Virus record (IMG/VR): IMGVR_UViG_3300042465_002836
Location: 1 to 58,220 of that record
Length of the DNA stretch: 58,220 nt
Reading direction: 5' to 3' (one strand)
Source of the DNA: a virus
Lineage: Duplodnaviria > Caudoviricetes
Each line of letters begins with the position of its first letter. Position 1 is the first letter of the stretch. The notes below the pieces were generated by a model, which saw only the letters and a program-made list of their open reading frames with translations, was not told where the DNA came from and did not search any database. Shown here in pieces: positions 1,646 to 55,039 of the stretch. Both the position numbers and the translations under genes were made by a program.

Positions 1646-1873
1646 ATGATCAGCAAGCCGTTTCTGATTGAGAAAAGAGCAAGCATCGTCAGCCAGCGCG
1701 ACAATGCGCTTGCGGTTTATCATCAAGCCGTTGGCGCATTGGCACTGGTTGATCACCTCATCGAGATGGCGGACCAAATTGAAAATGGGATGTCGCTCGA
1801 AACTTTCGCTGAAGCGATCAACGCCGATGGTGCTGAGATCGTCGATCTCAAACAAGTTACTCGAGGAGAATGA
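1646..1873 (+). CDS. Small helical hypothetical protein
   Basis: 75 aa, RBS, stop overlaps the next start. Confidence 0.6.
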   Translation: MISKPFLIEKRASIVSQRDNALAVYHQAVGALALVDHLIEMADQIENGMSLETFAEAINADGAEIVDLKQVTRGE

Positions 1874-2181
1874 CCATGAAGGGTCGTAAGAGCGGCGGGA
1901 TGGACTCTCCCGCCACTGGGGACAAGGAATACGCGCAGGATCTGGCCAGCAAGCCTAACCGTCGCAACAATGCCCCCAAGATCTTGAATGCTGCCGAGGA
2001 GCGCAAGCGCGGCGGCCGCACCAAGAAGAAGCACGTCATGGTGCCTGACGAGATGGGCAGCGCCCATGCGGGTCGCAAGCCGCGCAAGTCCGGTGGACGC
2101 GCTGGTTGCGACAGCAGCCCGTTCTCGTCCGCTCGGTCTGGTACGCCCGCCAAGGGCCGTAACACCGTCAGCATTGACTAA
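1870..2181 (+). CDS. Basic low-complexity GG-motif protein
   Basis: RKSGG, RKRGG, RKSGG motifs; gaggag RBS. Confidence 0.7.
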   Translation: MTMKGRKSGGMDSPATGDKEYAQDLASKPNRRNNAPKILNAAEERKRGGRTKKKHVMVPDEMGSAHAGRKPRKSGGRAGCDSSPFSSARSGTPAKGRNTVSID

Positions 2182-2189
2182 GATGGGTC

Positions 2190-2216
2190 GGGGGGCTTCG
2201 GCCCCCCTTCCTCTTT
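2190..2216 (+). terminator. Intrinsic terminator-like hairpin with cUUCGg tetraloop
   Basis: ggggggc-ttcg-gcccccc followed by ttcctcttt. Confidence 0.6.
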
Positions 2217-16635: not shown

Positions 16636-17835
16636 ATGCCCCTATCCAAAGGCCGCAGCCAGAAGACGATCAGCCGGAACGTCTCTGAGATGGTTCGCTC
16701 TGGTCACCCGCAAGATCAGGCGGTGGCGGCTGCGCTGGACGTGGCGCGCCGGGTCGCCAAGGGAGATGGCGGCAGCCTCTCTGATATGAACTCTGACACC
16801 CACAGCATCATCGACGGCCTCAACCGCAGTAAGAATGCCCTGATGAATGGGCTCCCATCTATTCCGGCCCGGGTCATCAGCAGCAATGACATTGACCACC
16901 TGCAACTGTCTCCAGAGCGCGCCGCCGCCTTGGACAAGATGGCTGAAGTCAACCGCAAAAAGGGGGACTTCTTCTCGGCCAGCACGTTTGGTGATGAAGA
17001 CGGGCGGCGATGGAGCGTCGAGGATGTCTTGAACTACGCCGAGAACAAGCCCGTGGTCAAATTGCCCACCAAGGGATTTGTCAAAGACCAAGTTGATCAA
17101 TGGTGGCAGGGCAACGAAGAACGGGCAAAGAAGGCAATTCCCTCAGAGCAGCACCCCATCCTTGTCCTAAAGCACCGCACCGGGAAGGCCCGTGGTGGAG
17201 GCCTCTATGCCAACATCCACGCCAAGCAGGAGCGCATTGCCCGCGGGTCGAAAGAGAAGATGCGGAAGCCCGGGTCTGAAGGCGCGCCTACAGCCGATGC
17301 TTTCAAGGCATCCGAGCGTACCGCCAAGGCGGGCGGCGGGATGCTAGAGTATGCCAAGGGCGGAATGCCCCGTATGGGCGGCACCAAGACCAAGGTCCAC
17401 GTTGGCCCGATCCACAGCACGGTGGCCGGTCGCACTGACCATCTTCCGATCCATGTCCCGTCTGGGGCCTACGTCATTCCTGCCGACATCATTAGTTCAA
17501 TGGGCGAGGGCAACACGATGGCGGGTTTCAAGGTGGCAAAGTCCATCTTCTCTGCCGGGGCTTACGGCCAGAAGAAGCTGGGGGCCGGGATGCCTTACGG
17601 CGGCGGCGGCCTTCCCTACGGCGTGCCATCGCCCGGTAAAGCGGAGGGCGGCCCTACAGACACCGTCCCAATCGTCGCAGCCGGTGGCGAATATGTGATA
17701 TCACCTGAAGATGTTTCCGCCCTAGGCAGCGGAAGCCTAGATGACGGGCACAAGATACTGGATGAGTTCGTCAAGCAGCAGCGGTCAAAGACCGTCAAGA
17801 CATTGAAGAAGCTGCCTGGTCCAAAGAAGGACTAG
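16636..17835 (+). CDS. Modular GG-motif protein (putative internal virion polyprotein)
   Basis: Modules separated by KGDGG, KARGG, KAGGG, YAKGG, KAEGG; duplicated D..P....G.YVI....S.LG.G domain at the C-term. Confidence 0.75.
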   Translation: MPLSKGRSQKTISRNVSEMVRSGHPQDQAVAAALDVARRVAKGDGGSLSDMNSDTHSIIDGLNRSKNALMNGLPSIPARVISSNDIDHLQLSPERAAALDKMAEVNRKKGDFFSASTFGDEDGRRWSVEDVLNYAENKPVVKLPTKGFVKDQVDQWWQGNEERAKKAIPSEQHPILVLKHRTGKARGGGLYANIHAKQERIARGSKEKMRKPGSEGAPTADAFKASERTAKAGGGMLEYAKGGMPRMGGTKTKVHVGPIHSTVAGRTDHLPIHVPSGAYVIPADIISSMGEGNTMAGFKVAKSIFSAGAYGQKKLGAGMPYGGGGLPYGVPSPGKAEGGPTDTVPIVAAGGEYVISPEDVSALGSGSLDDGHKILDEFVKQQRSKTVKTLKKLPGPKKD

Positions 17836-18393: not shown

Positions 18394-21300
18394 ATGGGCG
18401 GCGGCGGCAAAGGCGGAACTTCATCTTCATCGGTCAAGATACCGAAAGATGTCCTGCGGCGTTATAACCAAGTCAACAAACGTGCCGAAGAAGTCGCCGC
18501 GCAGCCGTTCCAGCGTTATACGGGGCAATTTGTTGCGGGTATGAACCCTCAACAACTGGCGGGCATTGAGGGCATTAACAATGCCGCAAATGTCGGTCAG
18601 AGTTATTTCAATGAGGCTGGTGGCCTTATGCGCGCTGGGTCTGGCACTGCCACGCCTGGCCAGCTTGATATTGATCGTTACTTGAGCCCCTACACTGAGA
18701 ATGTGGTTAACGCCACGCAGCGCACCCAAGAACAACAGAACCGCCAGCAGGCCACGCAACTGGCCGGGAATGCCATTTCTCAGGGTGCGTTTGGCGGCGA
18801 CCGCGCCGGGATTGCACAGGCCAACCTTGCCGGGCAGCAGGCCCTCTCAAACCAGCAGATCCTCGCCCAGCTTCGCCAGCAAGGCTACACGCAGGCTGTG
18901 GGCACGGCCCAGCAGCAGCAGGGGCTGGCATATCAGGCGCAGGCGGCTGATCTTGCCCGCAAACTTGCGGCAGGGCAGGGCATAGGCGGCCTCGGCGCGC
19001 AGGCCCAATCTTCTGCCCTGCAGGGCGCGCAAGCCCAAATCGGCGCCGGTACGCTGCAACAGCAGACTGAGCAGGCTGACTTGTCCGCCCAGTACAACCA
19101 GTTCCTTCAGGAACAAGGTTATCCCTTCCAGGTGGCCCAGTTCTTGGCAAACATCGCCATGGGCACAGGCGCATTGTCCGGGTCCACGACCACGACCACG
19201 CAGCCCGGGGGCTTTTTCTCAGACGAGCGGCTCAAGGAAGACATCAAGCCCGTTGGCAAGACGTTTGACGGCCAGGACATCTATTCTTACCGTTACAAGG
19301 GCGACAACCGGACCCAGATCGGCCTTCTGGCCCAAGAGGTCGAGCGGCATCACCCCAAGGCTGTTGGCCTCGCTGGCGGCTACAAGACCGTGGACTATGA
19401 CCGCGCCACTGAGAAGGCGGCGGATCGAGGGCACTTCTATCGTGGCGGCTTGGTCGCCTCCCAAGGCGGCGGCGTTGGCTATGGCAATGCTGGCGAAGGG
19501 TTTGCGGACGGCGGGATGCCTATTGGCGGCGATATCTACCAAATCCTTGCCGCACAGAAGGCCATGTTCCCGTATCAGACGGCTGGCATGTACGGCCATC
19601 AGCCGGGTACAGGGGCTTACGGCGTTGCCACCCCTGAGCAGAATATCGGGGATCTAGCCAACGTATTTCATTCGCGCTCCGCTGAACCGCCGCAGCAACA
19701 GAAGTCTCCGTTCCAGCAGGCCTTGGACACCGGCACCCAAGTCACTTCGACCTACAAGGGTGGCAAAGACATATACAACACTGCCGGCGACATTTACGAC
19801 TGGGGCAGGGACCAGTATTATTCTACCTTTACAGATCCTCTTATGGCGTCAACCCCGGGCAAAAGAGCTTCCGGCGGCCTTGTTCGTCCCAATTACGACT
19901 TGGGCGGATCTTTGCCTTACGGGCAGTCTCAAGGATCTGTTCTGTCTGATGTTGTCAAAGATACTGAGGCTGACGCCAACAGAGCTAAGTCTTCAGCCCC
20001 CGCATCTCAGTCGGCCCCTACCAGTGGCGGTGGCGATGGCGGCCTTGGTCAGATAGCCGGCACGACCTCTGGTCTAATCAATATGGGCCAAGACATCGGT
20101 TCGCTATTTGGCCCAGCCAAGGAAGGCTTGGAGGCCGCAAAGCTCGCTGGCGCCCTTGGCGAGGCAGGGGGAGCGGCTGCTGGCCTTGGCAGTGCAGGCA
20201 GTGCTGCCGCTGGCCTTGGCAGTGCCGCTGCAGGCGCAGCCGGTGCAGGGACTGCTGCCGCTGGCGCTGCTGGGGCCGCCGGCGCCGCTGGCGGGCTTGC
20301 CGGGATTGGGTCTTCAATCGCTTCGGCCTTGCCTTTCTTGGCGTTTCTTTCAGACAAACGCCTCAAAGAAGACATCCGGCACATCGGCAAGACCTTTGAT
20401 GGGCAGTCGGTCTATTCGTATCGCTATAAGGGCGATCCCCGCACCCAGATCGGGCTGTTGGCGCAGGAGGTCGAGCGCCATCACCCTGATGCTGTTGGCA
20501 GTGCGGGGGACTACAAGACGGTTGATTATGACGCTGCGACCAAGGATGCAGCCAAGCGGGGGCATTTTGCCTCGGGCGGTTTGGCTGGTCGGCGCGGTTA
20601 TGATGTTGGTGGAACTCCAATTACAGACCAACAGCTTCAAGATGCAGTTGATAAGGCCAGAGATCCTGGGCTCTTTGACCGCATTGCCAACGCCACGCCA
20701 GGCTTCATCCGCCGGGGTGTAGAGGCGGTGCCGGGTGCGCTTGATAAGCTATCAAAGGCTGACAACCTGATCCCGCTGGTTTCAGGCATTGCGGCTATGG
20801 GCACGGCCCCGACGCGAGAACTTGGCGTAGCCCTTGCCGCCGGTTTGGGTGCGGGCGCTCAGTCCGCCCAGCAGATGCGCCAGTTCGGCCTTGAGCAGGG
20901 CAGGCTTGGCCTGACGGCTCAACAAGTTGCTCTGCAACGCCTGAAAGCCGGTGCTGAACTGACCTCAATGCTCAGGAAAATAAGGCTGGGCGAGTCAATG
21001 GCTACTGGCGCGCCTCAAACAACTTATAATGATATCTTGGGTGGCCAAGATTTTGCTGACGCATTCCAGAAGTCGCTAGGGGGCTTCCCCACTATTGGTG
21101 GCGGATCTACGACTGTACCTGAAATCCCGACTGCAGGCGGCCTTGTCCCGGCTGGAGGCGCTGCCCCAAGCCTTGGCGGGTCAATGCCTGCAGAGATGCC
21201 GTCACCCACAGCAGCCGCTCCCGGCCTGGCTGGAGGCCCTGCCGTTGGCGGCGGTGCCGCTCCAGGCTTGGGCGGAGCCCAGCCAGCTACTGCCCCGGCC

Positions 21301-22803
21301 TCTCCCGCCGCGCCTGGCGCTGCGCCCGTTGCGCCGGCAATGCCGCCCGCAATTTCGCCCGCAGCAGCCGCGGCTAGCGCAATGCCTGCCGGCAATAGTC
21401 CGTTCTGGCAGGGCGTCCCCCTTAATCAAAATATGCCCAGGCTTGTGGAAAACTATAAGGCGGCCTTGGCTTCAGGAGAATTCGCTGCGGCTGAGACCAT
21501 CAGCAACTCCATGAACGGCATCATGGAGCGCGGCGTTGTCTATAAAGATGGGCAAGTCGTACCTATCCCTGGTTTTGCTGAAGCCAAGGCACGTCAGGTA
21601 GCCATAGAAGCCGCTTCCAGGACTACCGCAGAACGCAGTGCTGCACTTCCCTTTATTGCGCCAGAACTCCGGGCACGGGCCGGGGTTGAGATTGAGACCG
21701 GCACCAGAATTATGCCTGACGGCAGTGTTGTTCGGATACCGCCTGGCGCTGGAGGAGCCCCTGCGGGCGCTCCCGGCGGCGCTCCCGGCGCGGCGCCAGC
21801 GGCAGGCGGCAGACCGGCCGCGGGCAGCGCGACAGCCCCTGTTGAAGCTACTCCCGTCACGCCGGAAGAACAGCCGCCTACTCGTACTAAAGCGGAAGTA
21901 GATCCATCGTTTGGCACAATCAAAACGGCCATCCCCCAAGCTCCTGCTGGCGGCGGCCTTCCCCAAGTGAATTTGCCGCCGGGAGCCGTTCAGCAACAAC
22001 CTTCGCCGGCACAGGCCCAGCAGATTGAGCAAGATGCCGCTTTGGCTAAAGCGACACTGGGCAATCAGGCAAACATTCAAACGTCAATCCACCGCTCTTT
22101 TGCTATGGCTGCGGCGTATAAATCCGTTGCTGCCGGCAGGGTGCCAGACACAGCCCGCCTTATTGCTGAATACGCCACTTCTATAGGCGCCCCTGAAGTC
22201 GCGCAGCAGATTTTGGGCGGCGATATGGATGCGGTGGCGGCAGCAAACTGGTTCCAGAAGAACAAAGTCAACGCCACTATGGAGAACTTGAAGGCCCTCA
22301 ACCCACAGTTCACGCAATCTGAATTTGCCGAAATGAGTGAGTCTGGGTCAGCAACACTAAATCTTGACCCTGTTGCCGCGCACAAACTTGTCAGCGAGCA
22401 GCTTGGCACGCTCATGGCGGCGGACCAGTTCCAGCGAGATTGGCGCGTGGCTCAGACGCAGGGCTGGACCAGTTTGTCGGCCTTCCAGAACGCCTGGACC
22501 GAAGCCAACCCGATGGATGATTTCATCAAGACGGCGGCCTCGCAGATCGGCACCTTCAGGGGTATGGACGTTCCCCCGCCTGACAAGATGACCGTTGGCG
22601 CAACATACGTCTTGCCAGATCGTATGGACCCCCAGGCGGCTGAAGCATACGCCGCCGTGGGCATAAACCCTGGCGACACGTTTGTTTACCTTGGCCCACA
22701 ATACCAGCCTGAGAAGCTCGACAGACCTTTGACACAGAAAGAGCTTTCCCCTGCAGACTACCGCAAGACCCATGGAATACAGGTTCCTGAGACACGGCAG
22801 TGA
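18394..22803 (+). CDS. DNA ejection/internal virion protein with two internal peptidase S74 (auto-cleaving chaperone) domains
   Basis: MGGGGKGG start, Q-rich helices, GAFGGDR; SDERLKEDI...GLLAQEVE...YKTVDY at about 19219-19401 and again at about 20350-20532. Confidence 0.8.
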   Translation: MGGGGKGGTSSSSVKIPKDVLRRYNQVNKRAEEVAAQPFQRYTGQFVAGMNPQQLAGIEGINNAANVGQSYFNEAGGLMRAGSGTATPGQLDIDRYLSPYTENVVNATQRTQEQQNRQQATQLAGNAISQGAFGGDRAGIAQANLAGQQALSNQQILAQLRQQGYTQAVGTAQQQQGLAYQAQAADLARKLAAGQGIGGLGAQAQSSALQGAQAQIGAGTLQQQTEQADLSAQYNQFLQEQGYPFQVAQFLANIAMGTGALSGSTTTTTQPGGFFSDERLKEDIKPVGKTFDGQDIYSYRYKGDNRTQIGLLAQEVERHHPKAVGLAGGYKTVDYDRATEKAADRGHFYRGGLVASQGGGVGYGNAGEGFADGGMPIGGDIYQILAAQKAMFPYQTAGMYGHQPGTGAYGVATPEQNIGDLANVFHSRSAEPPQQQKSPFQQALDTGTQVTSTYKGGKDIYNTAGDIYDWGRDQYYSTFTDPLMASTPGKRASGGLVRPNYDLGGSLPYGQSQGSVLSDVVKDTEADANRAKSSAPASQSAPTSGGGDGGLGQIAGTTSGLINMGQDIGSLFGPAKEGLEAAKLAGALGEAGGAAAGLGSAGSAAAGLGSAAAGAAGAGTAAAGAAGAAGAAGGLAGIGSSIASALPFLAFLSDKRLKEDIRHIGKTFDGQSVYSYRYKGDPRTQIGLLAQEVERHHPDAVGSAGDYKTVDYDAATKDAAKRGHFASGGLAGRRGYDVGGTPITDQQLQDAVDKARDPGLFDRIANATPGFIRRGVEAVPGALDKLSKADNLIPLVSGIAAMGTAPTRELGVALAAGLGAGAQSAQQMRQFGLEQGRLGLTAQQVALQRLKAGAELTSMLRKIRLGESMATGAPQTTYNDILGGQDFADAFQKSLGGFPTIGGGSTTVPEIPTAGGLVPAGGAAPSLGGSMPAEMPSPTAAAPGLAGGPAVGGGAAPGLGGAQPATAPASPAAPGAAPVAPAMPPAISPAAAAASAMPAGNSPFWQGVPLNQNMPRLVENYKAALASGEFAAAETISNSMNGIMERGVVYKDGQVVPIPGFAEAKARQVAIEAASRTTAERSAALPFIAPELRARAGVEIETGTRIMPDGSVVRIPPGAGGAPAGAPGGAPGAAPAAGGRPAAGSATAPVEATPVTPEEQPPTRTKAEVDPSFGTIKTAIPQAPAGGGLPQVNLPPGAVQQQPSPAQAQQIEQDAALAKATLGNQANIQTSIHRSFAMAAAYKSVAAGRVPDTARLIAEYATSIGAPEVAQQILGGDMDAVAAANWFQKNKVNATMENLKALNPQFTQSEFAEMSESGSATLNLDPVAAHKLVSEQLGTLMAADQFQRDWRVAQTQGWTSLSAFQNAWTEANPMDDFIKTAASQIGTFRGMDVPPPDKMTVGATYVLPDRMDPQAAEAYAAVGINPGDTFVYLGPQYQPEKLDRPLTQKELSPADYRKTHGIQVPETRQ

Positions 22804-27528: not shown

Positions 27529-27529
27529 G

Positions 27530-39748: not shown

Positions 39749-39836
39749 TGGACCATATGGCCGCTTACATCACGATGGGCATCATTGCCGTCCCGACCAT
39801 CATCATCCTTGTCCTCGTCGCCGATGGGTGGGATGG

Positions 39837-41523: not shown

Positions 41524-41967
41524 ATGGTCGTGCCGTACCCCGAACCAACCGACAAGTGGGACCAGAGATTCCTGGCCCTCGCCCAGCACTTCGCCGCTTG
41601 GTCCAAAGACCCCTCAACCAAGGTCGGGGCCGTCATCGTGGACAAGCGCCGCCGCATCCTAAGCTCTGGCTACAACGGCTTCCCGGCGGGCATCCCCGAT
41701 GTCGCCCTGGAGCACCGCGACTATAAGTACCCCCGCATCATCCACGCTGAGACAAACGCCCTGCTGTTCGCCACCGCCCCCCTGGTGGGCGCCACGCTGT
41801 ACGTCTGGCCTATGCCGCCCTGCTCGCACTGCGCCGGATCAATCATCCAGGCCGGCATTGAGCGAGTGGTGTCGCCCCCTGCTGGCGAGCGGTGGGAGGA
41901 AAGCTGCCGCATTGGCCTGGAGATGTTTAATCGAGCCGGCATCCGCGTTGAGGAGATCGAGCTATGA
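41524..41967 (+). CDS. dCMP deaminase
   Basis: WSKDPSTKVGAVIV, GYNGFP, HAE.NA, PC..C. Confidence 0.92.
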   Translation: MVVPYPEPTDKWDQRFLALAQHFAAWSKDPSTKVGAVIVDKRRRILSSGYNGFPAGIPDVALEHRDYKYPRIIHAETNALLFATAPLVGATLYVWPMPPCSHCAGSIIQAGIERVVSPPAGERWEESCRIGLEMFNRAGIRVEEIEL

Positions 41968-42608: not shown

Positions 42609-42611
42609 GTG

Positions 42612-45217: not shown

Positions 45218-47548
45218 ATGGCACTTACACCAGGCCTTAGCGCCAATATTCGCCAGCCTATGCAGGCGCTGGATGATGTCGAGCCTCCTGCCGATGTCAT
45301 TATTGATGATACTGATGACGCAGAGGATGCTGCTGGCGGTGATCGCCCGGAGTACAATAGCCGCGGCGAAGTCCTCCGCATTGAACATGAAGACGGATCG
45401 GTCACCATCAGCCTGGATGGCCGGTCGCTGGTGGATGGCCCAGAGCGCCCCAACCTGGACTGGTTCGACAATCTGGTCGATGAGATTGACGATCTTGAAC
45501 TGAACCGAATTTCCGATGATCTTTTGCGCGGCATCCGCGACGATCTGGACAGCCGCAAGGACTGGGTCGAGGATCGAGCCAATGGCATCAAGCTGCTGGG
45601 CCTCAAGCTGGAGGTTCCGTCCCTGGGCGGCGCCGTGGATGGCGCGCCGGTCGAGGGCATGAGCCGGGTCCGCCACCCGCTCCTGCTGGAGGCCGTCCTG
45701 CGCTTCCAGGCTAACGCCCGGTCTGAGCTTCTGCCGGCAGATGGCCCGGTGAAGGTCCGGGTCAACGGCTCTTCTAGCGGCCCCAGCGACAACGTCTTGG
45801 CCGAGGCGCTTGAGGCTGACCTCAACCACTACCTGACCAGCGTGGCAAGCGAGTATTACCCTGACACTGACCGGATGCTCCTCATGCTCGGCTTCGGCGG
45901 CACGGGCTTTAAGAAGGTCTATTTCTGCCCCCTGCGCGAGCGTCCGGTGTCTGAGACGGTTGATGCTGATGACCTGATCGTCAACAACGCCGCCACTGAC
46001 CTGACTAACGCCAAGCGCATCACCCACCGCTCATATATGCGGCCCTCGACCGTCAAGCGGCTCCAGATCCTCGGGGTTTACCGTGACGTTGAGCTTGAGG
46101 CCCCGAAGTCATCTGACCTGGATAGCGTCCAGCGCGAGCAGCGTGCGGTTGAGGGCCTTGACACTGAGAGCTTCCGCCCCGAGGACCGGGACCGGGAAAT
46201 CTATGAATGCTACTGCGAACTAAACCTCCAGGGCTTTGAGCACAAGTGGAAGGGCAAGGTAACGGGGCTTGAGGTTCCGTACCGCGTGACCATTGATGCC
46301 TCTTCCAAGAAGATCCTGAGCATCGCCCGCAACTACGACGAGGAGACGGCCAAGCTGCCTGAGCCCCGGCCCAATTTCGTTAAGTTCACCTTTGTCCCTG
46401 GCTTTGGCTTCTACGACTTGGGCCTGCTGCACATCCTCGGCAACACGACCAACGCCATCACGGCGGCCTGGCGCGAGCTTCTGGATGCCGGCATGTATAG
46501 CAACTTCCCGGGCTTCCTGATGGCTGACACCGGGGCCAGGCAGAACACCAACATCTTTCGGGTGCCTCCGGGCGGCGGCGCGCTGGTCAAGACGGGCGGG
46601 ATGCCAATCTCCCAGGCCATTATGCCCCTGCCGTACAAGGAGCCGTCTGCGGCCCTGATGTCCTTGGTGGACAACATTGCCCAGACCGGCATGAGGGTCG
46701 GCGGCACCAGCGAGGCCCAGGTCGGCGAGGGTCGGGCAGACGCCCCGGTCGGCACCACGCTGGCGATGATCGACCAGGCAACCAAGGTCATGAACGCCGT
46801 CCACAAGCGCCTGCATTCCGCCCAGGCCGAAGAGTTCCGGCTGCTGTGCCGCACCTTCCAAGAGCACCCTGAGAGCTTCTGGCAGCGCAACCGCCGCCCG
46901 TCCTACAAGTGGGACGAGCAGAAGTTCCTGACAGCCCTGGATGACTACGACCTGACGCCCCAGGCTGATCCGAACACCGCCTCGCACACTCAGCGGATCA
47001 TGAAGGTCATGGCCCTGAAGCAGCTTCAGGCGGCCAACCCCAACCTCTATGACGCCGTGGCAATCGACACTGCGGCCCTCCAGGCCATTGGGTGGAACAA
47101 CCCTGAGCAGTTCATGACGCCGCAGAACCTGAACCAGCCGTCGCCCGAAGTGATGAAGGGGATTGCTGACGCCCAAGCCAAGCAGCAGGAGGTCATGTCC
47201 AAGATCGCCGAGACCAACGCCAAGACTGAGGATATGAGGGCTCGCACGGCGCTCGACACGGCCAGGTTCCAAGCGGAGAAACAAGAGGCAGGGCACGGTG
47301 ACCAGCACAAGACCCAGCTTGAGATCGCCCGCCTCCAGATGGACGGCAAGAAGCTCCAGATCGAGGAAGACGCCCAGCTATCCAGCGAGCGTCTGGAACT
47401 GGTGGACCTGGCCCAGAGCCTCGCGGTCCATCCTGAGAGCGCCCAGCTTGTCGCGCCCCTGATGCGGCCCCTGATGGAGGCTGTGCAGGGCAAAAGCACC
47501 AACGTAGCCCAGCAGAGAGGCGGTCTGGTCCCGCCCGGAGGCCAGTAA
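45218..47548 (+). CDS. Portal protein (P22-like)
   Basis: 776 aa; D..SR.DW, HPLL.EA...FQA.A..ELLPADGPVK, G..FKKVY, PG.GFY.LG; C-term coiled coil. Confidence 0.85.
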   Translation: MALTPGLSANIRQPMQALDDVEPPADVIIDDTDDAEDAAGGDRPEYNSRGEVLRIEHEDGSVTISLDGRSLVDGPERPNLDWFDNLVDEIDDLELNRISDDLLRGIRDDLDSRKDWVEDRANGIKLLGLKLEVPSLGGAVDGAPVEGMSRVRHPLLLEAVLRFQANARSELLPADGPVKVRVNGSSSGPSDNVLAEALEADLNHYLTSVASEYYPDTDRMLLMLGFGGTGFKKVYFCPLRERPVSETVDADDLIVNNAATDLTNAKRITHRSYMRPSTVKRLQILGVYRDVELEAPKSSDLDSVQREQRAVEGLDTESFRPEDRDREIYECYCELNLQGFEHKWKGKVTGLEVPYRVTIDASSKKILSIARNYDEETAKLPEPRPNFVKFTFVPGFGFYDLGLLHILGNTTNAITAAWRELLDAGMYSNFPGFLMADTGARQNTNIFRVPPGGGALVKTGGMPISQAIMPLPYKEPSAALMSLVDNIAQTGMRVGGTSEAQVGEGRADAPVGTTLAMIDQATKVMNAVHKRLHSAQAEEFRLLCRTFQEHPESFWQRNRRPSYKWDEQKFLTALDDYDLTPQADPNTASHTQRIMKVMALKQLQAANPNLYDAVAIDTAALQAIGWNNPEQFMTPQNLNQPSPEVMKGIADAQAKQQEVMSKIAETNAKTEDMRARTALDTARFQAEKQEAGHGDQHKTQLEIARLQMDGKKLQIEEDAQLSSERLELVDLAQSLAVHPESAQLVAPLMRPLMEAVQGKSTNVAQQRGGLVPPGGQ

Positions 47549-50500
47549 TGGACAAGGAAGCCCGCCGCGCATTGCTGGTTGCCAAGAACCTACTGCCAGA
47601 GCGTCCGGTAGAGGCCCACCCAGCGTTTTCTTCCTATTTTGCCCGCAGAGGCGCGTCTTCTCCTGATGAGTACGGCGGCCCCAGCGACAGCCGCCTAAAG
47701 GTCTGGGCCAACCGTCCTGATCCCATCACCCGGGCGGATCACATCCTCGACGGGAACACCGTCACCACCCCCGAGGACGAGGTGCTGCGGTTCCCAACAC
47801 GGGAACACGCCGTTGACTACATCGACAGCATGGTCGGGCATTGGCCTAGGTACTCCAAGGGCGGCAGTGCGGGCCTGTCTAAATGGCTGGGGGCCAGTAA
47901 AGTTGTTGATGAGGCCGGCAAGCCGTTGGTGGCTTATAAGGCCATGCGCGGCACCGTCCCTCGCATGAATTCAGAAACAGGCCTGACGCACGTTGCTCTT
48001 GATCCAGACGTGGCAAAGGAATTTTCCAACGGGGGCAAAAGGCCTGTCCATCAAGTTCATGTGATGGCAGAGAACCCTTTTGACTTCCGCAATTCAGAAC
48101 ACATCAAATGGCTTGTAGGCGAGGTCAAGAAGAACCCAGATATCCTCAAGCAGTTTAATGCTTACAACATGACGGGGCCGGATGATTTTGAGGCTGATGA
48201 AAGGTTCCTCACAGGCGCGCTAAAGGATGGCGCCTATCAAGCATATGAAACGCCGGTCATTACAAATTTGATACGGAACAAAGGTCATGACGGGATATAC
48301 ATGACTGAAGAGGGCGAGCGGCATAGACAGCCGAACCTAGGCCTCTTTCGCCCTCATCAAATCAAATCCGCTACTGACAATAACGGCAATTACGACCCGA
48401 CAGACCCCGACATCACCAAGGCCCGTGGCGGCAGCATCCACCCAGCCACCCAGATCCCCGGCGTTCACATCAGCGAGCGCATCCACGGCAAGCCTATCTT
48501 CACCGAGGAGCGGATCGGCAAGGAGGGCGGCGGCCTTCTGACGGGCAAAGACCAGACGCAGGATGATGAGGGCATCATCGCATACCAAGGCGGCCCCCAT
48601 AGCGTAGGCCCCGAGGGATACAGCAACGACAAGATTGGGACGGGGGAGGGCGCACAAGTCTACGGCCATGGGCACTACTTTGCCGAGGCCGAGCCGGTTG
48701 CGCGGGAATACAGAAACAAGTTGTCGGCGGGGATCATTAAGTCCAAGACCGGAGCGTCTTGGGACAAAACGCAATCGTATTTAATGCCTAAAGAAATGGC
48801 TAGTGTTCTTCCCGAGCATTTAAGGGAAAACACCGGAGTTCTGTATCCCGTTGATTTTGGCCTTAATCAAATTCGTGATGGCATGTCAGTTGACGATGCC
48901 ATTTCTTCAATGCGGCATAACTATTCTCACTTCAATCCAGAACACGTTGACGCAGCCGAGAGCGTGCTTCGTCATCACGCCCCAGAAGTTGAGTCTCGCG
49001 GGCACATGCACCAAGTCCTGATTAAAGGGAAGCCCGAGCATTTCCTTGATTGGGATGCCTTGCTGGACGAGCAGTCGCCGCACGTTATGAAGGCTCTGGA
49101 GGCCCAAGAATGGTGGCCCGGTATGCGAGATGCTGCCGAAGATCGAGCGTTCAACCGGGGTCAAAACCCGATTGGCGGCGACCTCATGAGGGAATTGCAC
49201 GTTGATTGGGAGAAGCCCGAGGCCGCTGAGATGTTGGCCCGTGCAGGCATTCGGGGCATCCGTTTCCTAGACCAAGTCAGCCGCAAGAAAGGCGAGGGCA
49301 CCCGCAACTACGTTGTCTTCGACCCCAAGCACATCGACATCCAGCGCCGGTACGCCCGTGGCGGCATGGCATACGGTGATGGCGGCTCAACGCCCGATGC
49401 TGGCGTCCAGAAGGCCCTCGACCTCACCCGCGACCTGAACCCGCAGGGGCTATACTCCCACGCCGCAGAGGCCGCCCTAGCGTCCCCCCAGGCCAAGGGT
49501 CCGCTGCCGCAGATGCTGGCAAGCCTCAAGGGCGTGAAGCCGGATGAGCTGAAATACTCTGGCGTCCAGCAGGCGTTTGCTGGCCAGCCCAAGGTGACCC
49601 GCGATGAATTGGCCCAGCACTTTCAAAAGGGGCTGCCAGACATCCAAGAGACAAGTTTTGATGATCAGGGTGGAATAGCGCGCGAAACAAAGTACGGGCA
49701 ATACACAATCCCGGGCGGCAAAAATTACCGCGAAGTATTACTGCATCTTCCTAGTGAACAAAGCAAAATAAAGAAGCGGTATTCTGTCCGCACTTTTCTT
49801 CCAACCCAACACGATAATTTAGAAGAAGCACGACAAGCTCACGACAATATAATGGGGATTAGGGGGGAGCGCCCTGATCTTCAGGAAAGAATGGACGAAT
49901 TTCCAAACGACATTGTTGATAACAATCCTAGGCATCTGTATGGGCAGGAGAACTTCCGCCATTCTCATTGGCCGGTGCCTAATGTGTTTGCCCATATTCG
50001 TTTCAAAGATCGCACTGGCCCGAACGGGGAGAAGATCCTTCACGTTGAGGAAGTCCAGAGTGACTGGGGGCAGCACGCCCGCAAGGCCGGCACATACGAT
50101 CCAGCGAAGCCATTTGAGGTGTTTGAAACGACATCAGGCAAAGTCTTGTCAAGCCATGCGTCTGAAGAAGAGGCCCAAGCTGAATCGGCAAAGCACCGTT
50201 CTGCTGGCCAAGAAGGTGTTGATTATGGACACGTCATGGATAAGTCGCGGGACCAAAGGCCCGCCCCTGACGCCCCTTACATTGGCAACACCCAGAACTG
50301 GACCGACCTTGCTCTGAAGCGCGTGCTTTATGAAGCGGCGGCGGGCGGCTATGACAAAATCATCTGGACGCCCGGCGCGGAGCAGGCCAAACGATACTCG
50401 CTTAGTAATCACGTTGATGAACTTCGCTACACCAAAAATGGCGATGGAACGTACAATGTAATTCCGTTTAAAGAGCAACGGGCGTTAAACAATATTAAAC

Positions 50501-53427
50501 GCGACAATATTCCAGAAAAAGAATTGGATGCTTTGTTTGGGCAAGACGTAGCCTCAAAGATGCGAGGTCACGAAGGTGATGCTAATGGAGAATTCCGTTC
50601 TTTGTCAGGGCAAGATCTGGAGGTGGGCGGCGAAGGAATGAAGGGTTATTACGACAAGGTTGTGCCCAAGAGCCTTTTGACGCTTGCCAAGCAACACGAT
50701 CCAGAAGCCAAATTGGGAGAGGAGCAGGTGAATGCAGGGCGCGAGAAAGATTTGTATGACCGATACGCCGCCCAGCACCTTATGCCGCCTGGCCCTGGCA
50801 TTTATGAAGCAAACGGATTAATTCGCCCGGTCGGTCAAGAATGGGCCGTTTATACGCCATACGGCGAAACCATGGGACAATTCCCTGACCGTGATTACGC
50901 TGAACAGCTTATTCGCAGCCACATACGATTTATGTTGGGCAATCCAGATCGGCCAACAAAGACTGATCGCATTGTGGCGATGCCTGCGCTGGACGTCACC
51001 CCCCGTATGCGTGAAAGCATCCCAAAGCGTGGCTTCAAGGCCTATGCCCGCGGCGGCGAGGTTGAGGGCTTCAAGTACGGCGGTTCGCCTGAAGATGACC
51101 TTGTCAGGCAGCGCCTAGAGGCCATGCCGTCCATCACCAGCCCTGACCCAGAGGTGGTGAAGCGGGCTCTTGCGATTGCGGCCCAGAGCCACGCTGTCAT
51201 CCCCAATTTCAACTCTGACAAGATGGGCAACACCTACTACAACTTCAAAACCCCGACTGACATTGATGCCGTCCAGGCCACAGTGGGCGCTATCCCCGGC
51301 GTGACCCCCCTTACGACCAAGGACATGTCTTGGGAAGACCTCTACAAAGAGGGCAAGGGTGGCACCATGATCAATTTGGGCGGCGACCGCTCCCGCCTAG
51401 GCCGCTTGACCCATATCCAGGGCAAGGCTCTGGCGTGGCCGGTGGATCTGCACGCAGGCCCAGATTACATGCGCGAGCCTAACGCTGGCGCGGTCTGGGC
51501 AAATGCGTCTGCCCATGCCGGCAGCATCAAGAGGTTGATAGGGGAGCTTCAAGAGAAGGGGCCGGTTTACGGCGCCTACACTCCCATGGGGCCAAAGACG
51601 CTGGACTCATCCGCCCAGATGTCAGACGCCCTGATGTCCCAGATCGCCACGCAGAAGCTTGACCCCAAGATGGCGGAAAAGTTTGACGATGAGATCCGAA
51701 GGGGAATGTTCGCGGAGACTGACAAACGCGCCAAAGCCTCCAAGCACATGGAAGGTTGGCCTGGGATTGAAGATGCGCTGGCCGCCCGAGATTTCCTGCT
51801 GAAAAAGCCGGGGTCAATCCGCAGTTTGATCGTCAAGCATATGGACAAGAAGATGTGGCACGACGGCGGCTTCCCGCATGTCGGCATCACTCGAGTAGCT
51901 TTGACTGATCCTGCCCTGTTGAAAGCGGGTGGCAATATGGTGGGACATCGGGTTGCCCGCCTTAGCCCGGATGACATCACCCCAGGTTCGTTCCAGCACA
52001 ACACATATCCTGTCGCCACGGCGGGCGAATATGTGGGCGACGTTCCGCTGGTCCAGCGGCACTACGCCTTCCCAGAGACCATCCGGCAATTTGCCTTGGA
52101 ACCTAAAGTTCCGGGCGTTTTGCATCCTTATTCAGAAAATCCAAACGCCAGAAACGGCTTCCGCAAGAACACTGAGGACCAGCGAATTACTCAGACGCTT
52201 GATGAACCATGGCTTGAGAGCCTGAGCAAGGGCCTTGAGAACCAGAAGAAATATGGCTTCTCCCGGGGTGGCGATACAAAGCGTCACGGCAAGGCTGGCG
52301 GTGGCTCAGAGGGCGAAATGGCCGGTGACAAGTTTGCCAGCTACAAAGACCCGACCGGCACACCAATTGATGATTGGAAATGGCGCGACCTTCCAGCCGT
52401 CAGGGCTGAACTTGGCAACATCACTGAGATCCCCTCGCACGTTGCGGACTTCGGGCGGTTCATGGATGAGACGGCAAAACGCGCCGCCACCCAAGGCCTG
52501 AAGCCGCGGGATCTGGTCAAATCCTACGCCATCACCTTGGCCTCAATTCAGCGGCGAGCGCAGGACGTGGACAGGATTAGGGCGGCAGGAATGCCGCTTG
52601 AAGGCCTGACGGGCAAGATCCGCCCAGAAGGCGCCATGGGCGAGTGGCTGCAAACTCCTGCTGGCCAGGCGTACTTAGATCGCGCCGTTCGTGGCGAAGT
52701 CCATGAGCCCGCCTTAGATGACATGGTGCAGAAGCTTAAGCCGTTCGGCATGGCCCCTAAGCTCGCAGACTCGCTGCGGTGGGCTGCGGCCAATCTCCCT
52801 GGCAAAGAGGGCTTGGTTTCTCATCTGGTTGCCGCAGGCATGGAACAGGCAAGCTCGCCTGATGAATGGCGCGACTTTGCCAAGGGCCTTCACGGCATTG
52901 ACGTGAGCAAAGCGGGCTTTATCGCGTCCATGCTGGGTCGCGGCGATCAGCCGACCTTTGACGCCCGGCAGCGCATCCTGCAGACCGGGATGACCAGCAC
53001 AGACGCAGGCAAGATGATTGCCGGGCCTAAGATGAACCCAAAGGCTCGGGCTGGCGTAGATCGGCTGGCTGCCCGTCAATCGGCAATGGATCTTGCCCTG
53101 CCAAAAGAACTGGCCCCGTATTACCAGCACTTGGCGCATCACACGATCTGGGACAAAGCCAGCGGCGAAGAAACCACGCATCAGGATCTTATGGATGCTA
53201 TGCGGCACGCTGCTTCTGGCGGTGCGATAGAGAAAAGTCCCATACATGATCACCCTCTTGTTCATGTTATGCGCGGCCTAGGCTTCCCTGGTCTTGAAGA
53301 AACAGGTAAAGCCTCAAACAATAATCGCAGTGTTGTTGATGAAGCTTTGCGTTTAACATCACAAAACGGATCGCCGCTGCCCGATGCCGTAAATCTCGCC
53401 AGGCAGCACAAGCCGGGACGCCGGTAG
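47548..53427 (+). CDS. Large polyvalent (multi-module) internal virion protein
   Basis: 1959 aa; two ART-PolyVal-like modules, an EEVQSDW module and an HhH-like module, separated by GG motifs. Confidence 0.75.
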   Translation: MDKEARRALLVAKNLLPERPVEAHPAFSSYFARRGASSPDEYGGPSDSRLKVWANRPDPITRADHILDGNTVTTPEDEVLRFPTREHAVDYIDSMVGHWPRYSKGGSAGLSKWLGASKVVDEAGKPLVAYKAMRGTVPRMNSETGLTHVALDPDVAKEFSNGGKRPVHQVHVMAENPFDFRNSEHIKWLVGEVKKNPDILKQFNAYNMTGPDDFEADERFLTGALKDGAYQAYETPVITNLIRNKGHDGIYMTEEGERHRQPNLGLFRPHQIKSATDNNGNYDPTDPDITKARGGSIHPATQIPGVHISERIHGKPIFTEERIGKEGGGLLTGKDQTQDDEGIIAYQGGPHSVGPEGYSNDKIGTGEGAQVYGHGHYFAEAEPVAREYRNKLSAGIIKSKTGASWDKTQSYLMPKEMASVLPEHLRENTGVLYPVDFGLNQIRDGMSVDDAISSMRHNYSHFNPEHVDAAESVLRHHAPEVESRGHMHQVLIKGKPEHFLDWDALLDEQSPHVMKALEAQEWWPGMRDAAEDRAFNRGQNPIGGDLMRELHVDWEKPEAAEMLARAGIRGIRFLDQVSRKKGEGTRNYVVFDPKHIDIQRRYARGGMAYGDGGSTPDAGVQKALDLTRDLNPQGLYSHAAEAALASPQAKGPLPQMLASLKGVKPDELKYSGVQQAFAGQPKVTRDELAQHFQKGLPDIQETSFDDQGGIARETKYGQYTIPGGKNYREVLLHLPSEQSKIKKRYSVRTFLPTQHDNLEEARQAHDNIMGIRGERPDLQERMDEFPNDIVDNNPRHLYGQENFRHSHWPVPNVFAHIRFKDRTGPNGEKILHVEEVQSDWGQHARKAGTYDPAKPFEVFETTSGKVLSSHASEEEAQAESAKHRSAGQEGVDYGHVMDKSRDQRPAPDAPYIGNTQNWTDLALKRVLYEAAAGGYDKIIWTPGAEQAKRYSLSNHVDELRYTKNGDGTYNVIPFKEQRALNNIKRDNIPEKELDALFGQDVASKMRGHEGDANGEFRSLSGQDLEVGGEGMKGYYDKVVPKSLLTLAKQHDPEAKLGEEQVNAGREKDLYDRYAAQHLMPPGPGIYEANGLIRPVGQEWAVYTPYGETMGQFPDRDYAEQLIRSHIRFMLGNPDRPTKTDRIVAMPALDVTPRMRESIPKRGFKAYARGGEVEGFKYGGSPEDDLVRQRLEAMPSITSPDPEVVKRALAIAAQSHAVIPNFNSDKMGNTYYNFKTPTDIDAVQATVGAIPGVTPLTTKDMSWEDLYKEGKGGTMINLGGDRSRLGRLTHIQGKALAWPVDLHAGPDYMREPNAGAVWANASAHAGSIKRLIGELQEKGPVYGAYTPMGPKTLDSSAQMSDALMSQIATQKLDPKMAEKFDDEIRRGMFAETDKRAKASKHMEGWPGIEDALAARDFLLKKPGSIRSLIVKHMDKKMWHDGGFPHVGITRVALTDPALLKAGGNMVGHRVARLSPDDITPGSFQHNTYPVATAGEYVGDVPLVQRHYAFPETIRQFALEPKVPGVLHPYSENPNARNGFRKNTEDQRITQTLDEPWLESLSKGLENQKKYGFSRGGDTKRHGKAGGGSEGEMAGDKFASYKDPTGTPIDDWKWRDLPAVRAELGNITEIPSHVADFGRFMDETAKRAATQGLKPRDLVKSYAITLASIQRRAQDVDRIRAAGMPLEGLTGKIRPEGAMGEWLQTPAGQAYLDRAVRGEVHEPALDDMVQKLKPFGMAPKLADSLRWAAANLPGKEGLVSHLVAAGMEQASSPDEWRDFAKGLHGIDVSKAGFIASMLGRGDQPTFDARQRILQTGMTSTDAGKMIAGPKMNPKARAGVDRLAARQSAMDLALPKELAPYYQHLAHHTIWDKASGEETTHQDLMDAMRHAASGGAIEKSPIHDHPLVHVMRGLGFPGLEETGKASNNNRSVVDEALRLTSQNGSPLPDAVNLARQHKPGRR

Positions 53428-53449
53428 AACCCTGATCAGGAGTAAGCGC

Positions 53450-55039
53450 ATGTCTGAAGCAGCTAAGGCCGCTCGAGCGGCAAACAAGGCAAAGGCCAAG
53501 CGCCTCACTGCCGGTGATCCCAGGGCCAAGGTTGACGCCTCGTCGTACACCCCGCCTGAGATGATGAACACTGAGGCCAAGACCGGCCTGCGCCCCGTAT
53601 CTCGCCGCGCCTACAAGAGCGGCGGCAAGGTCCATGGCGAGATGGCCGTGAAGCACGCTGGTCGCAAGCCCCGCAAGTCTGGCGGCGCGACTGAGATTGC
53701 CAACGCCAAGGTCAACCGCAACGTGAAGGAAGCCAACGCTGAGAAGTTTGGCAAGCCCCACACGGGTGGTTATGCCATGGGCGGCTATGCCAAGGGCGGT
53801 CGGTCGGCCAAAGCGGGCGGTGGTGGCTCTGAGAAGGGGCCAGTGCGGCGCGTTAATCTGAAGGGGCCTGGAAGCCCCTACATGGAGATGCACTATCACC
53901 CTGAGAGCGATGACCCTGATGGCCGTTACGAAGTGAAAGTCTTCAAGAACGGGCAGGAAATCAAACACCCCTTGTCAGGCAGGGCTGACAATGGCCAAGC
54001 CCATAACATTCTTGACAATTATGCCGGGCAGTCTTTGCACTATGACCCCTACGGCGATAATGAAGACGAGTATGATCACGACCCCGTGGCGCAGCGCGAG
54101 CGTGGCTCAAGCTACGAAGGCATGAAGAAGGGCGGTCGCGCCAAGAAGATGGACGGCGGCCCCATGGGTGACCCCCGTGCCGCTGCCGCTGCCCAGATGG
54201 CTGATGCCGCCACCCAAGCTGGCGTACCGGCAGGCCGGATGTCTTTCACTGATCGCGCTGGCAGCCCCCTTCCCAACTCTGGGATGAAGAAGGGCGGCAA
54301 GATCAAGAACTTTGAAGGCTCCCCCAAGGACGAGATGCAGGACAAGAAGCTCGCCAAGAAGCGCGGCATGTCTATGCAGGAGTGGGAGGCTTCTGAGGCC
54401 GATGAAAAGCACGACAAGCAGCAGAGCATGGCTGGCCTCAAGAAGGGCGGTCGGACTGGTCGAGCCACTGGTGGCCGCGCTGCCAAGTCTACCGGCGGCG
54501 ATATCCTCAAGGCCCTCTCGCCCATCTCCATGCTGATGAACAAGGGCGGCAAGGCTGGCAGCGGCAACTACACGGGCGGCACGCGCCCAACTGGTGGCCG
54601 GATTGCCAAGGCTGGCGGCGGCCTTCTCAGCAGCCTTATGGGCGGCTCCAAGGCTTCAAGCTCCAGCAGCAAGTCCAAGGGCAAGAAGAAGGGCACCAAC
54701 ATCAATATCGTGATCAACGCCGGCAAGTCCGGGGATCAGGGTATGCCCACCGCGCCCCCGATCCTTCCCGCGCCCCCGATGCTCCCCCCGACCTTGGCTG
54801 GCGCAATGCCCGGCGGCGGCGCGCCCATGGGGATGCCTATGCCTGACGCGCCCGACATGTCCGCAATGGGCGCTCCCGGCGGCGGTATGCCTAACGGTAT
54901 GCCTGGCCTCCCTGGTCGCAAGGCTGGCGGTCGCGTCGGTCACCGCAGCTATTCGTCCTACAAGGACATGGATGCGGGTTCTGGCGGTGGTTTGGGCCGT
55001 CTGGAAAAGACGGAAATTGCCAAGAAGAAGTACAAGTAA
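53450..55039 (+). CDS. Disordered basic GG-repeat protein
   Basis: About 15 xxxGG motifs (YKSGG, YAKGG, MKKGG twice, LKKGG, RATGG, RKAGG and others). Confidence 0.75.
   Translation: MSEAAKAARAANKAKAKRLTAGDPRAKVDASSYTPPEMMNTEAKTGLRPVSRRAYKSGGKVHGEMAVKHAGRKPRKSGGATEIANAKVNRNVKEANAEKFGKPHTGGYAMGGYAKGGRSAKAGGGGSEKGPVRRVNLKGPGSPYMEMHYHPESDDPDGRYEVKVFKNGQEIKHPLSGRADNGQAHNILDNYAGQSLHYDPYGDNEDEYDHDPVAQRERGSSYEGMKKGGRAKKMDGGPMGDPRAAAAAQMADAATQAGVPAGRMSFTDRAGSPLPNSGMKKGGKIKNFEGSPKDEMQDKKLAKKRGMSMQEWEASEADEKHDKQQSMAGLKKGGRTGRATGGRAAKSTGGDILKALSPISMLMNKGGKAGSGNYTGGTRPTGGRIAKAGGGLLSSLMGGSKASSSSSKSKGKKKGTNINIVINAGKSGDQGMPTAPPILPAPPMLPPTLAGAMPGGGAPMGMPMPDAPDMSAMGAPGGGMPNGMPGLPGRKAGGRVGHRSYSSYKDMDAGSGGGLGRLEKTEIAKKKYK

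Follow-up and report, generated by a model that had tools for sequence, protein, structure and literature searches.

The window analysed here is the whole of the IMG/VR record IMGVR_UViG_3300042465_002836, a complete 58 kb genome of an uncultured podophage (58,220 bases) with direct terminal repeats. The element in question is a short motif ending in two glycines, xxxGG, which recurs in six open reading frames (ORFs) of the late block, designated A to F. These ORFs are given below with their coordinates in nucleotides (nt), their lengths in amino acids (aa) and, for the basic proteins, their isoelectric points (pI).

1870..2181, plus strand: ORF A, 103 aa, pI 10.6, with three RK[SR]GG sites at nt 1885-1899, 2002-2016 and 2083-2097
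16636..17835, plus strand: ORF B, with PHROG 2423 at aa 5-48 and PHROG 16028 at aa 193-235
18394..22803, plus strand: ORF C, 1469 aa, PHROG 4287 'DNA ejection protein', with PF13884 (7.1e-21) in 2 stretches
22813..25053, plus strand: ORF D, with a C-terminal element at nt 24859-25050 composed of GGRADGGRVGYRAGGRI, about 35 aa and the helix VVKALSVA
47548..53427, plus strand: ORF E, 1959 aa, with ART-PolyVal PF18760 (3e-08, above cut-off)
53450..55039, plus strand: ORF F, 529 aa, pI 10.0 with a net charge of +38, mostly disordered, carrying 16 copies of the motif

The GG motif in six late-block proteins

The motif was scored in its loose form, [YFMLKR]xxGG, with 1000 residue shuffles of each ORF serving as the null. 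Pooled, the six ORFs contain 52 copies among 119 GG dipeptides (A 3/3, B 7/12, C 9/41, D 5/12, E 12/24, F 16/27) compared with 19.3 ± 4.2 expected, and 0/1000 shuffles reach 52. The excess is also apparent separately in A (3 vs 0.43, P.006), B (7 vs 1.66, P.001), D (5 vs 1.47, P.011), E (12 vs 5.27, P.007) and F (16 vs 4.31, 0/1000). The 61 other ORFs, pooled in the same way, hold 37 copies vs 30.3 ± 5.3 expected, a number reached by 124/1000 shuffles, and the capsid protein shows no enrichment (2 vs 0.54 expected, P.087). The xxxGG pattern is genuine and restricted to the six proteins. An initial annotation of this DNA had placed the motif in the same six ORFs, and its presence at those positions, its enrichment over shuffles and the lack of clustering in capsid, portal and early proteins are all borne out, its hand count of about 40 being too low. 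The close pairing described there holds for C, E and F, where pairs 5-12 aa apart exceed residue shuffles (3 vs 0.19, 3 vs 0.10 and 6 vs 0.25, respectively).

The glycine codons show a mild bias only, GGC accounting for 76/104 within motifs vs 301/508 elsewhere. A pure composition artefact is ruled out by the shuffles, together with the persistence of the motif in the pelagiphage HTVC027P, whose genome has a guanine plus cytosine (GC) content of 36%. In this phage the place of E and F, between portal and GroES, is taken by 11 small, mostly very basic ORFs. Its gp47 (112 aa) carries YKVGGRV, SKMGGGK, GMRGGAM and YKKGGSV, gp44 has FKKGGS, and gp46 ends in FKNGGKK.

The copies fall into two motif contexts rather than one code. 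The basic class, [R/M/L/F/Y]-K-x-G-G-[R/K]-[A/V/I], is found in the disordered pI 10 proteins F and A; the aromatic class, an aromatic-x-x-GG cap that is often doubled, ends the folded modules of E and is also present in B, C and D. This division is readily seen with a position weight matrix derived from F homologues, which gives 3 hits in A vs 0.07 expected, 12 in F vs 1.15, 1 each in B, C and D, and 0 both in E and in all other ORFs. The aromatic form [YFW]xxGG, in contrast, occurs in excess in E (8 vs 1.35) and C (5 vs 1.63), as well as in B and F, and amounts to 19 copies vs 4.1 expected in the six ORFs and 5 vs 10.2 in the others. The single uniform, genome-wide code initially proposed is ruled out by the score of 0 in E for the F-based matrix while the aromatic form is enriched in E and C. 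An extended element, GGR[VI][GA], links otherwise unrelated families, with 151 instances in F homologues vs 1.5 expected and 23 in polyvalent-protein homologues vs 1.3 (e.g. YMRGGRVGYADGG); D carries it as ADGGRVGYRAGG.

Conserved sites in disordered proteins and at module junctions

The family of protein F comprises 2274 homologues at E ≤ 0.001 (8000 proteins scored), and among the F homologues listed the first 40 carry 11-19 loose motifs each. The consensus drawn from 2450 GG contexts in 120 F homologues listed, one of which is the window's own fragment, has K at -2 in 46% and R/K at +1 in 46%, with positions +1 and +2 conserved. In the alignments the GG sites remain in register, and the spacers between them differ by tens of residues through large indels. 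Across 69 sequences with about 50% identity to F, conservation is 90% or more at glycines 58-59, 106-107, 111-112, 282-283, 333-334, 382-383, 390-391 and 493-494. The AlphaFold2 model of F (69 sequences) has a mean predicted local distance difference test score (pLDDT) of 54.3, with 261/529 residues below 50 and two short folded segments, 131-193 and 290-330. None of the 16 motif copies falls within these segments; all are in parts that are disordered or modelled with low confidence. The charge of F clusters near the motifs (+0.18 per residue vs +0.02 elsewhere), some of which form the array GG-3-GG-3-GG-5-GGGG. The ESM Atlas model of F has a pLDDT of 0.45 and only unnamed viral clusters resemble the protein; a PDB sequence search with F gave no match, and tblastn with F returned 1 record. 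The protein ends in a module of its own:

nt 54908-55036: conserved C-terminal module of F, RKAGGRVGH...YKDMDAG.G.GLGRLEKTEI

As RKAGGR.YRSYKDMDAGAGSG.GRLEKTEI, this module is nearly invariant, and it is tandemly duplicated in many homologues.

Protein A is in effect a miniature F and the product of a genuine conserved gene. Its third codon positions have a GC content (GC3) of 0.77, and it has 862 homologues at E ≤ 0.001; at least three motifs are kept in 112/119 aligned homologues, with the three GG sites at least 90% conserved. The stretch HAGRKPRKSGGR is largely conserved, most positions reaching at least 90%, and RKPRKSGGR is likewise mostly at or above this level. A and F share a homologous stretch with 71% nucleotide identity over 86 bases, and HAGRKPRKSGG occurs in both. 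The segment GRKPRKSGG lacks the AT-hook core R-G-R-P in both proteins, and neither has a Pfam AT_hook match. Positional conservation in homologues, as checked on the GG sites of F and A, is thereby confirmed, and the initial description of the six proteins as otherwise unrelated does not hold, given the stretch common to A and F and the B-type termini found around the core module of E in the homologue P0146 (see below).

The aromatic class is best followed along protein E, in which the features are arranged as follows.

nt 47560-47583: N-terminal helix of E
nt 47989-48390: ART-PolyVal domain, PF18760
nt 48409-48435: junction KARGG
nt 49342-49428: junction 1, YARGG-MAYGDGG-helix VQKALDLT
nt 49417-51042: core module 3, residues ~624-1165
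nt 51043-51180: junction 2, YARGG-FKYGG-helix VKRALAIA
nt 52258-52305: junction 3, FSRGG-KAGGG
nt 53335-53358: C-terminal helix VDEALRLT

In 23 related loci, the interval from the portal gene to the F homologue consists of 1-3 ORFs of widely differing length, with three genes in the uncultured phage MW202675.1. Comparison of E with those ORFs by BLASTP places block limits at E 291-295, 602-613, 1166-1179, 1571-1575 and 1582-1586; three separate homology blocks stop at E 1575, and in one locus (L005) two E homology blocks occur in reversed order. Among 35 distinct block ends, counted with 4/23 rows left out as duplicates, 16 are no more than 15 aa away from a motif GG, where 5.5 would be expected, a result obtained in 0/5000 random sets. 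The modules of E are shuffled, split or fused at motif points in relatives, and the picture of a plug-in platform is supported in that modules are permuted, split into 1-3 genes and fused at these points. The claim that the motifs sit at domain junctions rather than inside domains stands for the block ends and fails for LEVGG at E 1024, inside a confidently folded region, and for FSNGG at E 159, inside the ART domain.

The core module is present in at least 539 large proteins, in which it is combined with cell-wall hydrolases, ADP-ribosyltransferases (ARTs) and LPD domains; its homologues carry PF18760, PF18823, PF07486, PF01464 and PF18013. Junctions were counted in the best 120 of the at least 539 homologues, 102 of which contain the anchor TPxMRxxI, the last helix of the module. 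After this anchor a GG follows within 30 aa in 100/102, at a distance of 9-10 residues in 93/100, and F or Y is found at -3 in 84/102. Various residues follow the GG (S 25, E 14, D 13, R 13 and A 12 of 100), and the sequences beyond it are unrelated, consisting of a further module in 74 cases and of the protein end within 40 residues in 26.

The AlphaFold2 model of E 590-1220 (59 sequences) corresponds to a confidently folded module, with a mean pLDDT of 77.6 and a predicted template modelling score of 0.74. Two segments with pLDDT below 50, E 599-615 and E 1169-1183, flank the core, and these are exactly the two GG doublets; order extends as far as the aromatic residue, and pLDDT is below 50 from the GG onward. 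The junction peptide, although located in a disordered linker, shows 12 positions without any change in 5 relatives that are 30-60% identical, and the second GG of each doublet is invariant with its flanks (Y20, G23, G24, D28 and helix positions). As regards the fold itself, a Foldseek comparison with the PDB gave 0/320 matches at E ≤ 0.001, BFVD gave 26 hits, all of them uncharacterised phage polyvalent proteins, and the best row of a PDB sequence search with E was colicin E2 (E 0.08). Residues of His, Arg, Asp, Glu, Gln, Ser and Trp occupy invariant positions in the core module, e.g. H227, R229, D232, R233, H243, E246, Q248, S249 and W251 in alignment numbering, and the module may be an uncharacterised enzyme.

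Proteins B and C contain the following additional features.

nt 16636-16773: N-terminal handle of B, ending KGDGG, with small inserted modules downstream of it
nt 17299-17832: C-terminal module of B, opening AKAGGG/YAKGG/PRMGG
nt 19219-19365 and 20341-20538: Peptidase_S74 intramolecular-chaperone domains of C
nt 19426-19533 and 20557-20616: post-S74 sites of C, RGHF[YA]xGG plus a second aromatic-xx-GG

In the 1261 aa protein P0146, a B-type N-terminal module (57% identity) and C-terminal module (51%) flank the core module of E. Since the two ends of B are the ends of P0146 around that core, B can be regarded as a minimal carrier in the same combinatorial system as E. The ATG at 16636 is confirmed as the start of B, the homologue P0146 beginning there, and in the complete relative G001 the N-terminal handle of the B homologue is joined straight to the C-terminal module after the GG.

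Both S74 copies of C contain SD[EK]RLKEDI, i.e. the Ser-Asp start of the domain that marks PF13884, and in G001 the sequence GHFAGGGLAG stands behind both S74 domains of the C homologue. The two motif copies of C arose from an internal duplication. The occurrence of two tandem S74 domains inside one protein is unusual compared with the single C-terminal one. Because two Peptidase_S74 domains are present, C is a candidate self-processing polyprotein, cut at serine rather than at GG, and self-cleavage at both serines would give three products. For D, the homologue in G001 (1034 aa) ends in RASGGRI, about 35 aa and then TVAKALSLADQAI; a search of the related loci with D gave 8 pattern matches, 0 of them confirmed.

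The GG doublets of E are followed by an amphipathic helix, V-x-[KR]-A-L-x-L-T, which in the window is found in 3/69 ORFs only (B, D and E). It occurs in E at residues 5, 620, 1204 and 1930 (4 vs 0.05 expected), in B at residue 30 from the 16636 start (34 from the GTG at 16624), within the N-terminal handle, and in D as VVKALSVA, 12 residues from the end. In relatives it is present in 18/27 distinct cargo ORFs, in 15 of those at most 35 aa from the C-terminus, and in 0/54 of the other ORFs of at least 300 aa (9 portal, 18 F, 13 capsid, 2 scaffold and 12 other); a GG lies at most 12 aa upstream in 15/26 instances. Stand-alone cargo genes in relatives both start and end with the helix. In MW202675.1, gene 3 starts with MTDAVKRALDMV and ends in IDRALSLT plus 12 residues, gene 2 ends in VSKALALTRSFTKR, and gene 1 ends in YHARGGVAK. 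The 120 polyvalent homologues listed contain 132 strict helix instances vs 5.7 expected, located near the C-terminus in 37/120 and near the N-terminus in 17/120, with a GG within 20 aa upstream for 79/132; a relaxed pattern is found in the first 30 residues of 27/120 vs 0/120 shuffled. In fused proteins the helix lies 1-8 aa past the GG and in stand-alone genes 4-18 aa past the first Met. Natural C-termini keep the motif as well, the endings being GG plus 2-6 residues or GG plus helix.

At the nucleotide level, the invariant Ala of the helix uses 4 codons and the invariant Leu 6, and the mean pairwise identity is 0.52 (25 instances). Selection on the helix acts on the protein, since synonymous sites vary freely, and a linker for recombination at the DNA level is ruled out by the codon diversity and low nucleotide identity. 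Taken together, these data show a motif under selection in late-block proteins, conserved in position and located at module boundaries and in disordered linkers.

Gene order and neighbouring genes

The late block runs in the order terminase, portal, E, F, an 85 aa ORF, GroES-like, scaffold-like, ORF 56667 and ORF 57463. Across the record ends it continues with the capsid protein, A, a DUF6321 protein and two SU10-adaptor paralogues, and further with fibre-like proteins, lysis genes, B, an acetyltransferase-like ORF, C and D. The head and tail are of a type with an SU10-like portal plus adaptors and a Mu gpT-like capsid. The main structural and packaging genes are the following.

18..929, plus strand: major capsid protein, 303 aa, PF10124 Mu-like_gpT (7.4e-05), PHROG 371
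39723-41513: terminase large subunit, PHROG match from residue 57, His-rich start of the longest ORF
45218..47548, plus strand: portal gene, PF23899 SU10_portal (5.9e-16), PHROG 1216, with the cargo genes directly downstream
55358-55759: GroES-like co-chaperonin, in the head block, conserved in MW202675.1 and HTVC027P
55753..56655, plus strand: scaffold-like helical protein, with a weak match, below cut-off, to the last 30 positions of Mu-like_Pro

Megablast against the phage collection gave no match, E and F included, and there are no close cultured relatives. The nearest GenBank record by portal is MW202675.1 (68% identity), followed by the pelagiphages HTVC027P and HTVC023P (~35%). The true start of the terminase is probably further downstream than the start of the longest ORF, because the PHROG match begins at residue 57, after the His-rich stretch. 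In the scaffold-like protein a conserved SR(SP)GG is found 8-10 aa ahead of the C-terminal helix LSAEEREMA.MMGM, and the same arrangement is present in MW202675.1.

Several neighbouring genes deserve separate mention. ORF 56667-57272 (201 aa), between the scaffold and capsid genes, has a near-canonical AT-hook, RRRGRPRK, at its start; its Pfam AT_hook score is below cut-off (E 0.068), its ESM Atlas model has a pLDDT of 0.69, and only unnamed viral clusters resemble it. The DUF6321 protein at 2217-2498 (5.8e-16) lies beside A and belongs to the same family as HTVC027P gp52, and this family (PF19846) is fused into the polyvalent proteins P0195 and P0209. The two SU10-adaptor-like paralogues, 3301-4011 and 12512-13234, are 8.5 kb apart. 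At 8948-9934, adjoining a fibre-like gene, a 328 aa ORF contains 38% glycine and 60 GG dipeptides with a weak Gly_rich_2 match, and the motif is not enriched in it (5 vs 4.38 expected from shuffles). The minus strand carries ERF and YqaJ recombination genes at 26893-28315, and ThyX and a PAPS-reductase-like gene occupy 41964-43448, between terminase and portal.

Possible roles of the motif and comparison with known systems

The explanation preferred here, with a probability of about 40%, is that the motif provides recognised handles for loading modular cargo into the head and does not mark cleavage sites. Internal proteins of tailed phages must enter the procapsid ahead of the DNA, and each therefore needs a protein-protein signal. 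Loading handles are favoured because the GG motif, together with the helix in the cargo, is the only feature common to these proteins, and A-F are most likely packed in the head and ejected with the DNA. Each folded or handle module would be closed by a GG pair, where a flexible stretch would open, and the residues around the GG would be conserved through recognition by something. The doubled GG plus helix of E, D and relatives, with a similar helix in the B handle, would act as universal handles, and any effector module bearing them could be fused, split or swapped and yet enter the procapsid. Docking is favoured only by inference; the handles might bind a conserved head component, which could be the portal, the scaffold, the capsid interior or F. 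In F and A, the 3-16 repeats in basic, AT-hook-like patches would allow multivalent attachment and probably DNA contact. A broader and rather tentative proposal is that a widespread group of aquatic podophages of ~55-70 kb shares a universal, portable loading grammar, with the GG motif and helix on every cargo module and F as a multivalent hub or DNA-bound matrix. Arbitrary effector domains could then be exchanged, loaded and ejected into the host without a maturation protease.

Several observations weigh against the proposed handles. The presence of A-F in the virion is only suggested, by gene position, one PHROG name and the ART-PolyVal family, and the motif is short and of low information content. 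C alone is not significantly enriched (9 vs 5.91, P.145 in 1000 shuffles). Of the G001 proteins compared, the F homologue alone has an excess of the loose motif (14 vs 4.08); the counts for the polyvalent protein (7 vs 4.04) and for the homologues of C (6 vs 5.56) and D (2 vs 1.68) do not significantly exceed expectation. In the model of E, the chain is still ordered at the aromatic residue that closes the core module (block pLDDT 81), and this residue may be a plain structural cap. As for the helix, 59/120 polyvalent homologues have no strict match, the pattern was formulated after examples had been seen, and the relatives share ancestry, the counts therefore not representing independent events. 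A complex prediction of the portal with the junction peptide scored 0.00, which gives no answer and constitutes no evidence either way.

It is somewhat unlikely, given these data, that the motif is a passive hinge, in which the aromatic residue anchors the domain end, the GG breaks the secondary structure, the repeats result from descent or duplication, and nothing recognises the motif. Such a hinge is consistent with the loss of order at the GG in the model of E 590-1220, with the disorder of most of F, with the internal duplication behind the copies of C and with the homologous stretch of A and F, and passage through a narrow tail channel would be expected to favour flexible joints. A passive linker is nevertheless insufficient, because the second GG of the doublets and its flanks are invariant within a disordered junction, the motif is kept at natural C-termini with nothing following, and the same element, GGR[VI][GA], recurs in otherwise unrelated families. 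The conservation of the flanks in F and A and the survival of the motif in a genome of 36% GC also argue against it.

Cleavage, the other role considered in the initial annotation, is unlikely. Here a phage, host or autoproteolytic activity would cut after GG and free the modules of E, B, C and D, and it would remove the terminal helices after targeting, as with the capsid-targeting sequence of T4. Processing of virion polyproteins at GG↓X has precedents in adenain, in pS273R of African swine fever virus (ASFV) and in the self-cleavage site YxVG↓G of potyvirus HC-Pro. The helix lies 1-8 aa past the GG in fused proteins and 4-18 aa past the first Met in stand-alone genes, so that cutting after GG would leave an N-terminus like the native one; a short tail is retained beyond the GG at natural C-termini, the residue after GG is variable, and C, in the same block, has two putatively self-cleaving S74 domains. 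S74, however, cuts at its own serine and not at GG, and it is the only peptidase found with Pfam on 42 ORFs, PHROGs on 30 and NCBIfam on 10, these being mostly ORFs of about 90 aa or more. The same scans gave no clan CE cysteine protease of the adenain/pS273R type and no prohead protease, the latter in agreement with the initial annotation. Sub-threshold peptidase rows are limited to the scaffold-like protein, which matches the last 30 positions of Mu-like_Pro, and to Peptidase_A24 (E 0.042). No HExxH-type signature is present in the virion ORFs, and a zincin peptidase in E is ruled out by its lack of HExxH. A protease fold in the E core module is rejected likewise, the PDB having given none at E ≤ 0.001 and BFVD only uncharacterised phage proteins. 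Double-glycine leaders with C39 export do not apply either, as the motifs are internal or C-terminal and no C39 was detected in the Pfam scans (42 ORFs). Furthermore, the head is of a type that combines a distinct scaffold with a 303 aa Mu gpT-like capsid protein and for which no maturation protease was recognised, and the F arrays spaced 3-6 residues apart would yield 5-residue products. Conservation in F also extends to positions +1 and +2, and the hydrophobic residue occupies P5 instead of P4, one position off the adenain consensus. If the sites are cut, a new protease activity must exist.

Distinctly unlikely as a full account is nucleic-acid contact, in which the basic class (F, A and the small basic ORFs of relatives) would be a DNA-binding element, comparable to an AT-hook or a ribosomal tail, in histone-like internal proteins that neutralise or escort the packaged genome, the E junction class being unrelated. 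The high pI of F and A, the net charge of F and its clustering around the motifs are consistent with this, as are the likeness of GRKPRKSGG to an AT-hook, the RRRGRPRK start of ORF 56667, the very basic small ORFs at the same place in HTVC027P, and the GG then KK that follow a basic stretch near the C-terminus of T7 gp7.3 and gp6.7. Against it stand the lack of a Pfam AT_hook match in A or F and the occurrence of the same GG element in neutral or acidic contexts in E and C; moreover, entry before the DNA means that DNA binding alone cannot explain loading. Contact with DNA can be compatible with the handles proposed above.

Among known systems, the sites of adenain, pS273R and HC-Pro are similar in having a hydrophobic or aromatic residue followed by Gly-Gly, in virion core proteins or polyproteins, and in their association with basic, DNA-associated core proteins. 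The adenain consensus is (M/I/L)-X-G-G↓X, with the hydrophobic residue at P4. Unlike this, the F homologues have the hydrophobic residue or Arg at -3 (P5) and Lys at P4 in 46%, and the core module has F/Y at P5 (84/102); unlike adenain and pS273R sites, the motif forms dense tandem arrays, and no clan CE or other cysteine protease was found in the ORFs scanned. T7 gp6.7 and gp7.3, which are ejected with the DNA, offer a weak analogy as small podophage virion proteins with a basic stretch and GG then KK near the C-terminus; in contrast to the proteins of this phage, they have one site each, and no homology was detected. In the T-even adhesin gp38, glycine motifs delimit hypervariable segments and form the folded polyglycine sandwich of the receptor-binding tip. 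The alternation of conserved glycine motifs with hypervariable spacers is similar in F, for which, unlike gp38, disorder is predicted and whose gene belongs to the head block.

E is a member of the polyvalent proteins. According to the main text of PMC5512222 (Iyer et al. 2017), these proteins are predicted to be packaged and injected, and processing by zincin-like peptidases is discussed. E resembles them, as described in that text, in being large and multidomain, in its ART-PolyVal domain and in its position next to the portal, and its relatives add cell-wall hydrolases, ARTs and LPD domains. Unlike the zincin-processed proteins treated there, E is without a zincin peptidase. The junction motif and the terminal helix are not described in the main text, from which the words 'glycine' and 'linker' are absent, and no description of the motif was found in the literature searched, including the main texts of PMC5512222 and PMC9599517. 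If the elements are loading signals, they would explain the free domain shuffling of polyvalent effectors and would provide a sequence rule for injected proteins in metagenomic phages, given an F family of >2000 and a core module of >500 members.

To our knowledge, how a phage chooses its head-loaded, injected proteins is known for a few models only, namely T4, P1, N4 and P22. In T4, the internal proteins IPI-III and Alt carry a single N-terminal capsid-targeting sequence of ~10 residues, which is removed by the gp21 prohead protease. The elements described here differ from it in being multiple, in their positions, which are mostly C-terminal or internal and in part N-terminal, in consisting of GG plus a helix, and in having no prohead protease found alongside them. 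They resemble it in that a short peptide is common to otherwise unrelated proteins that would likewise be packaged, and heterologous cargo could in principle be attached, as in T4; as loading signals, they would also offer a compact tag with which selected proteins could be brought into phage particles.

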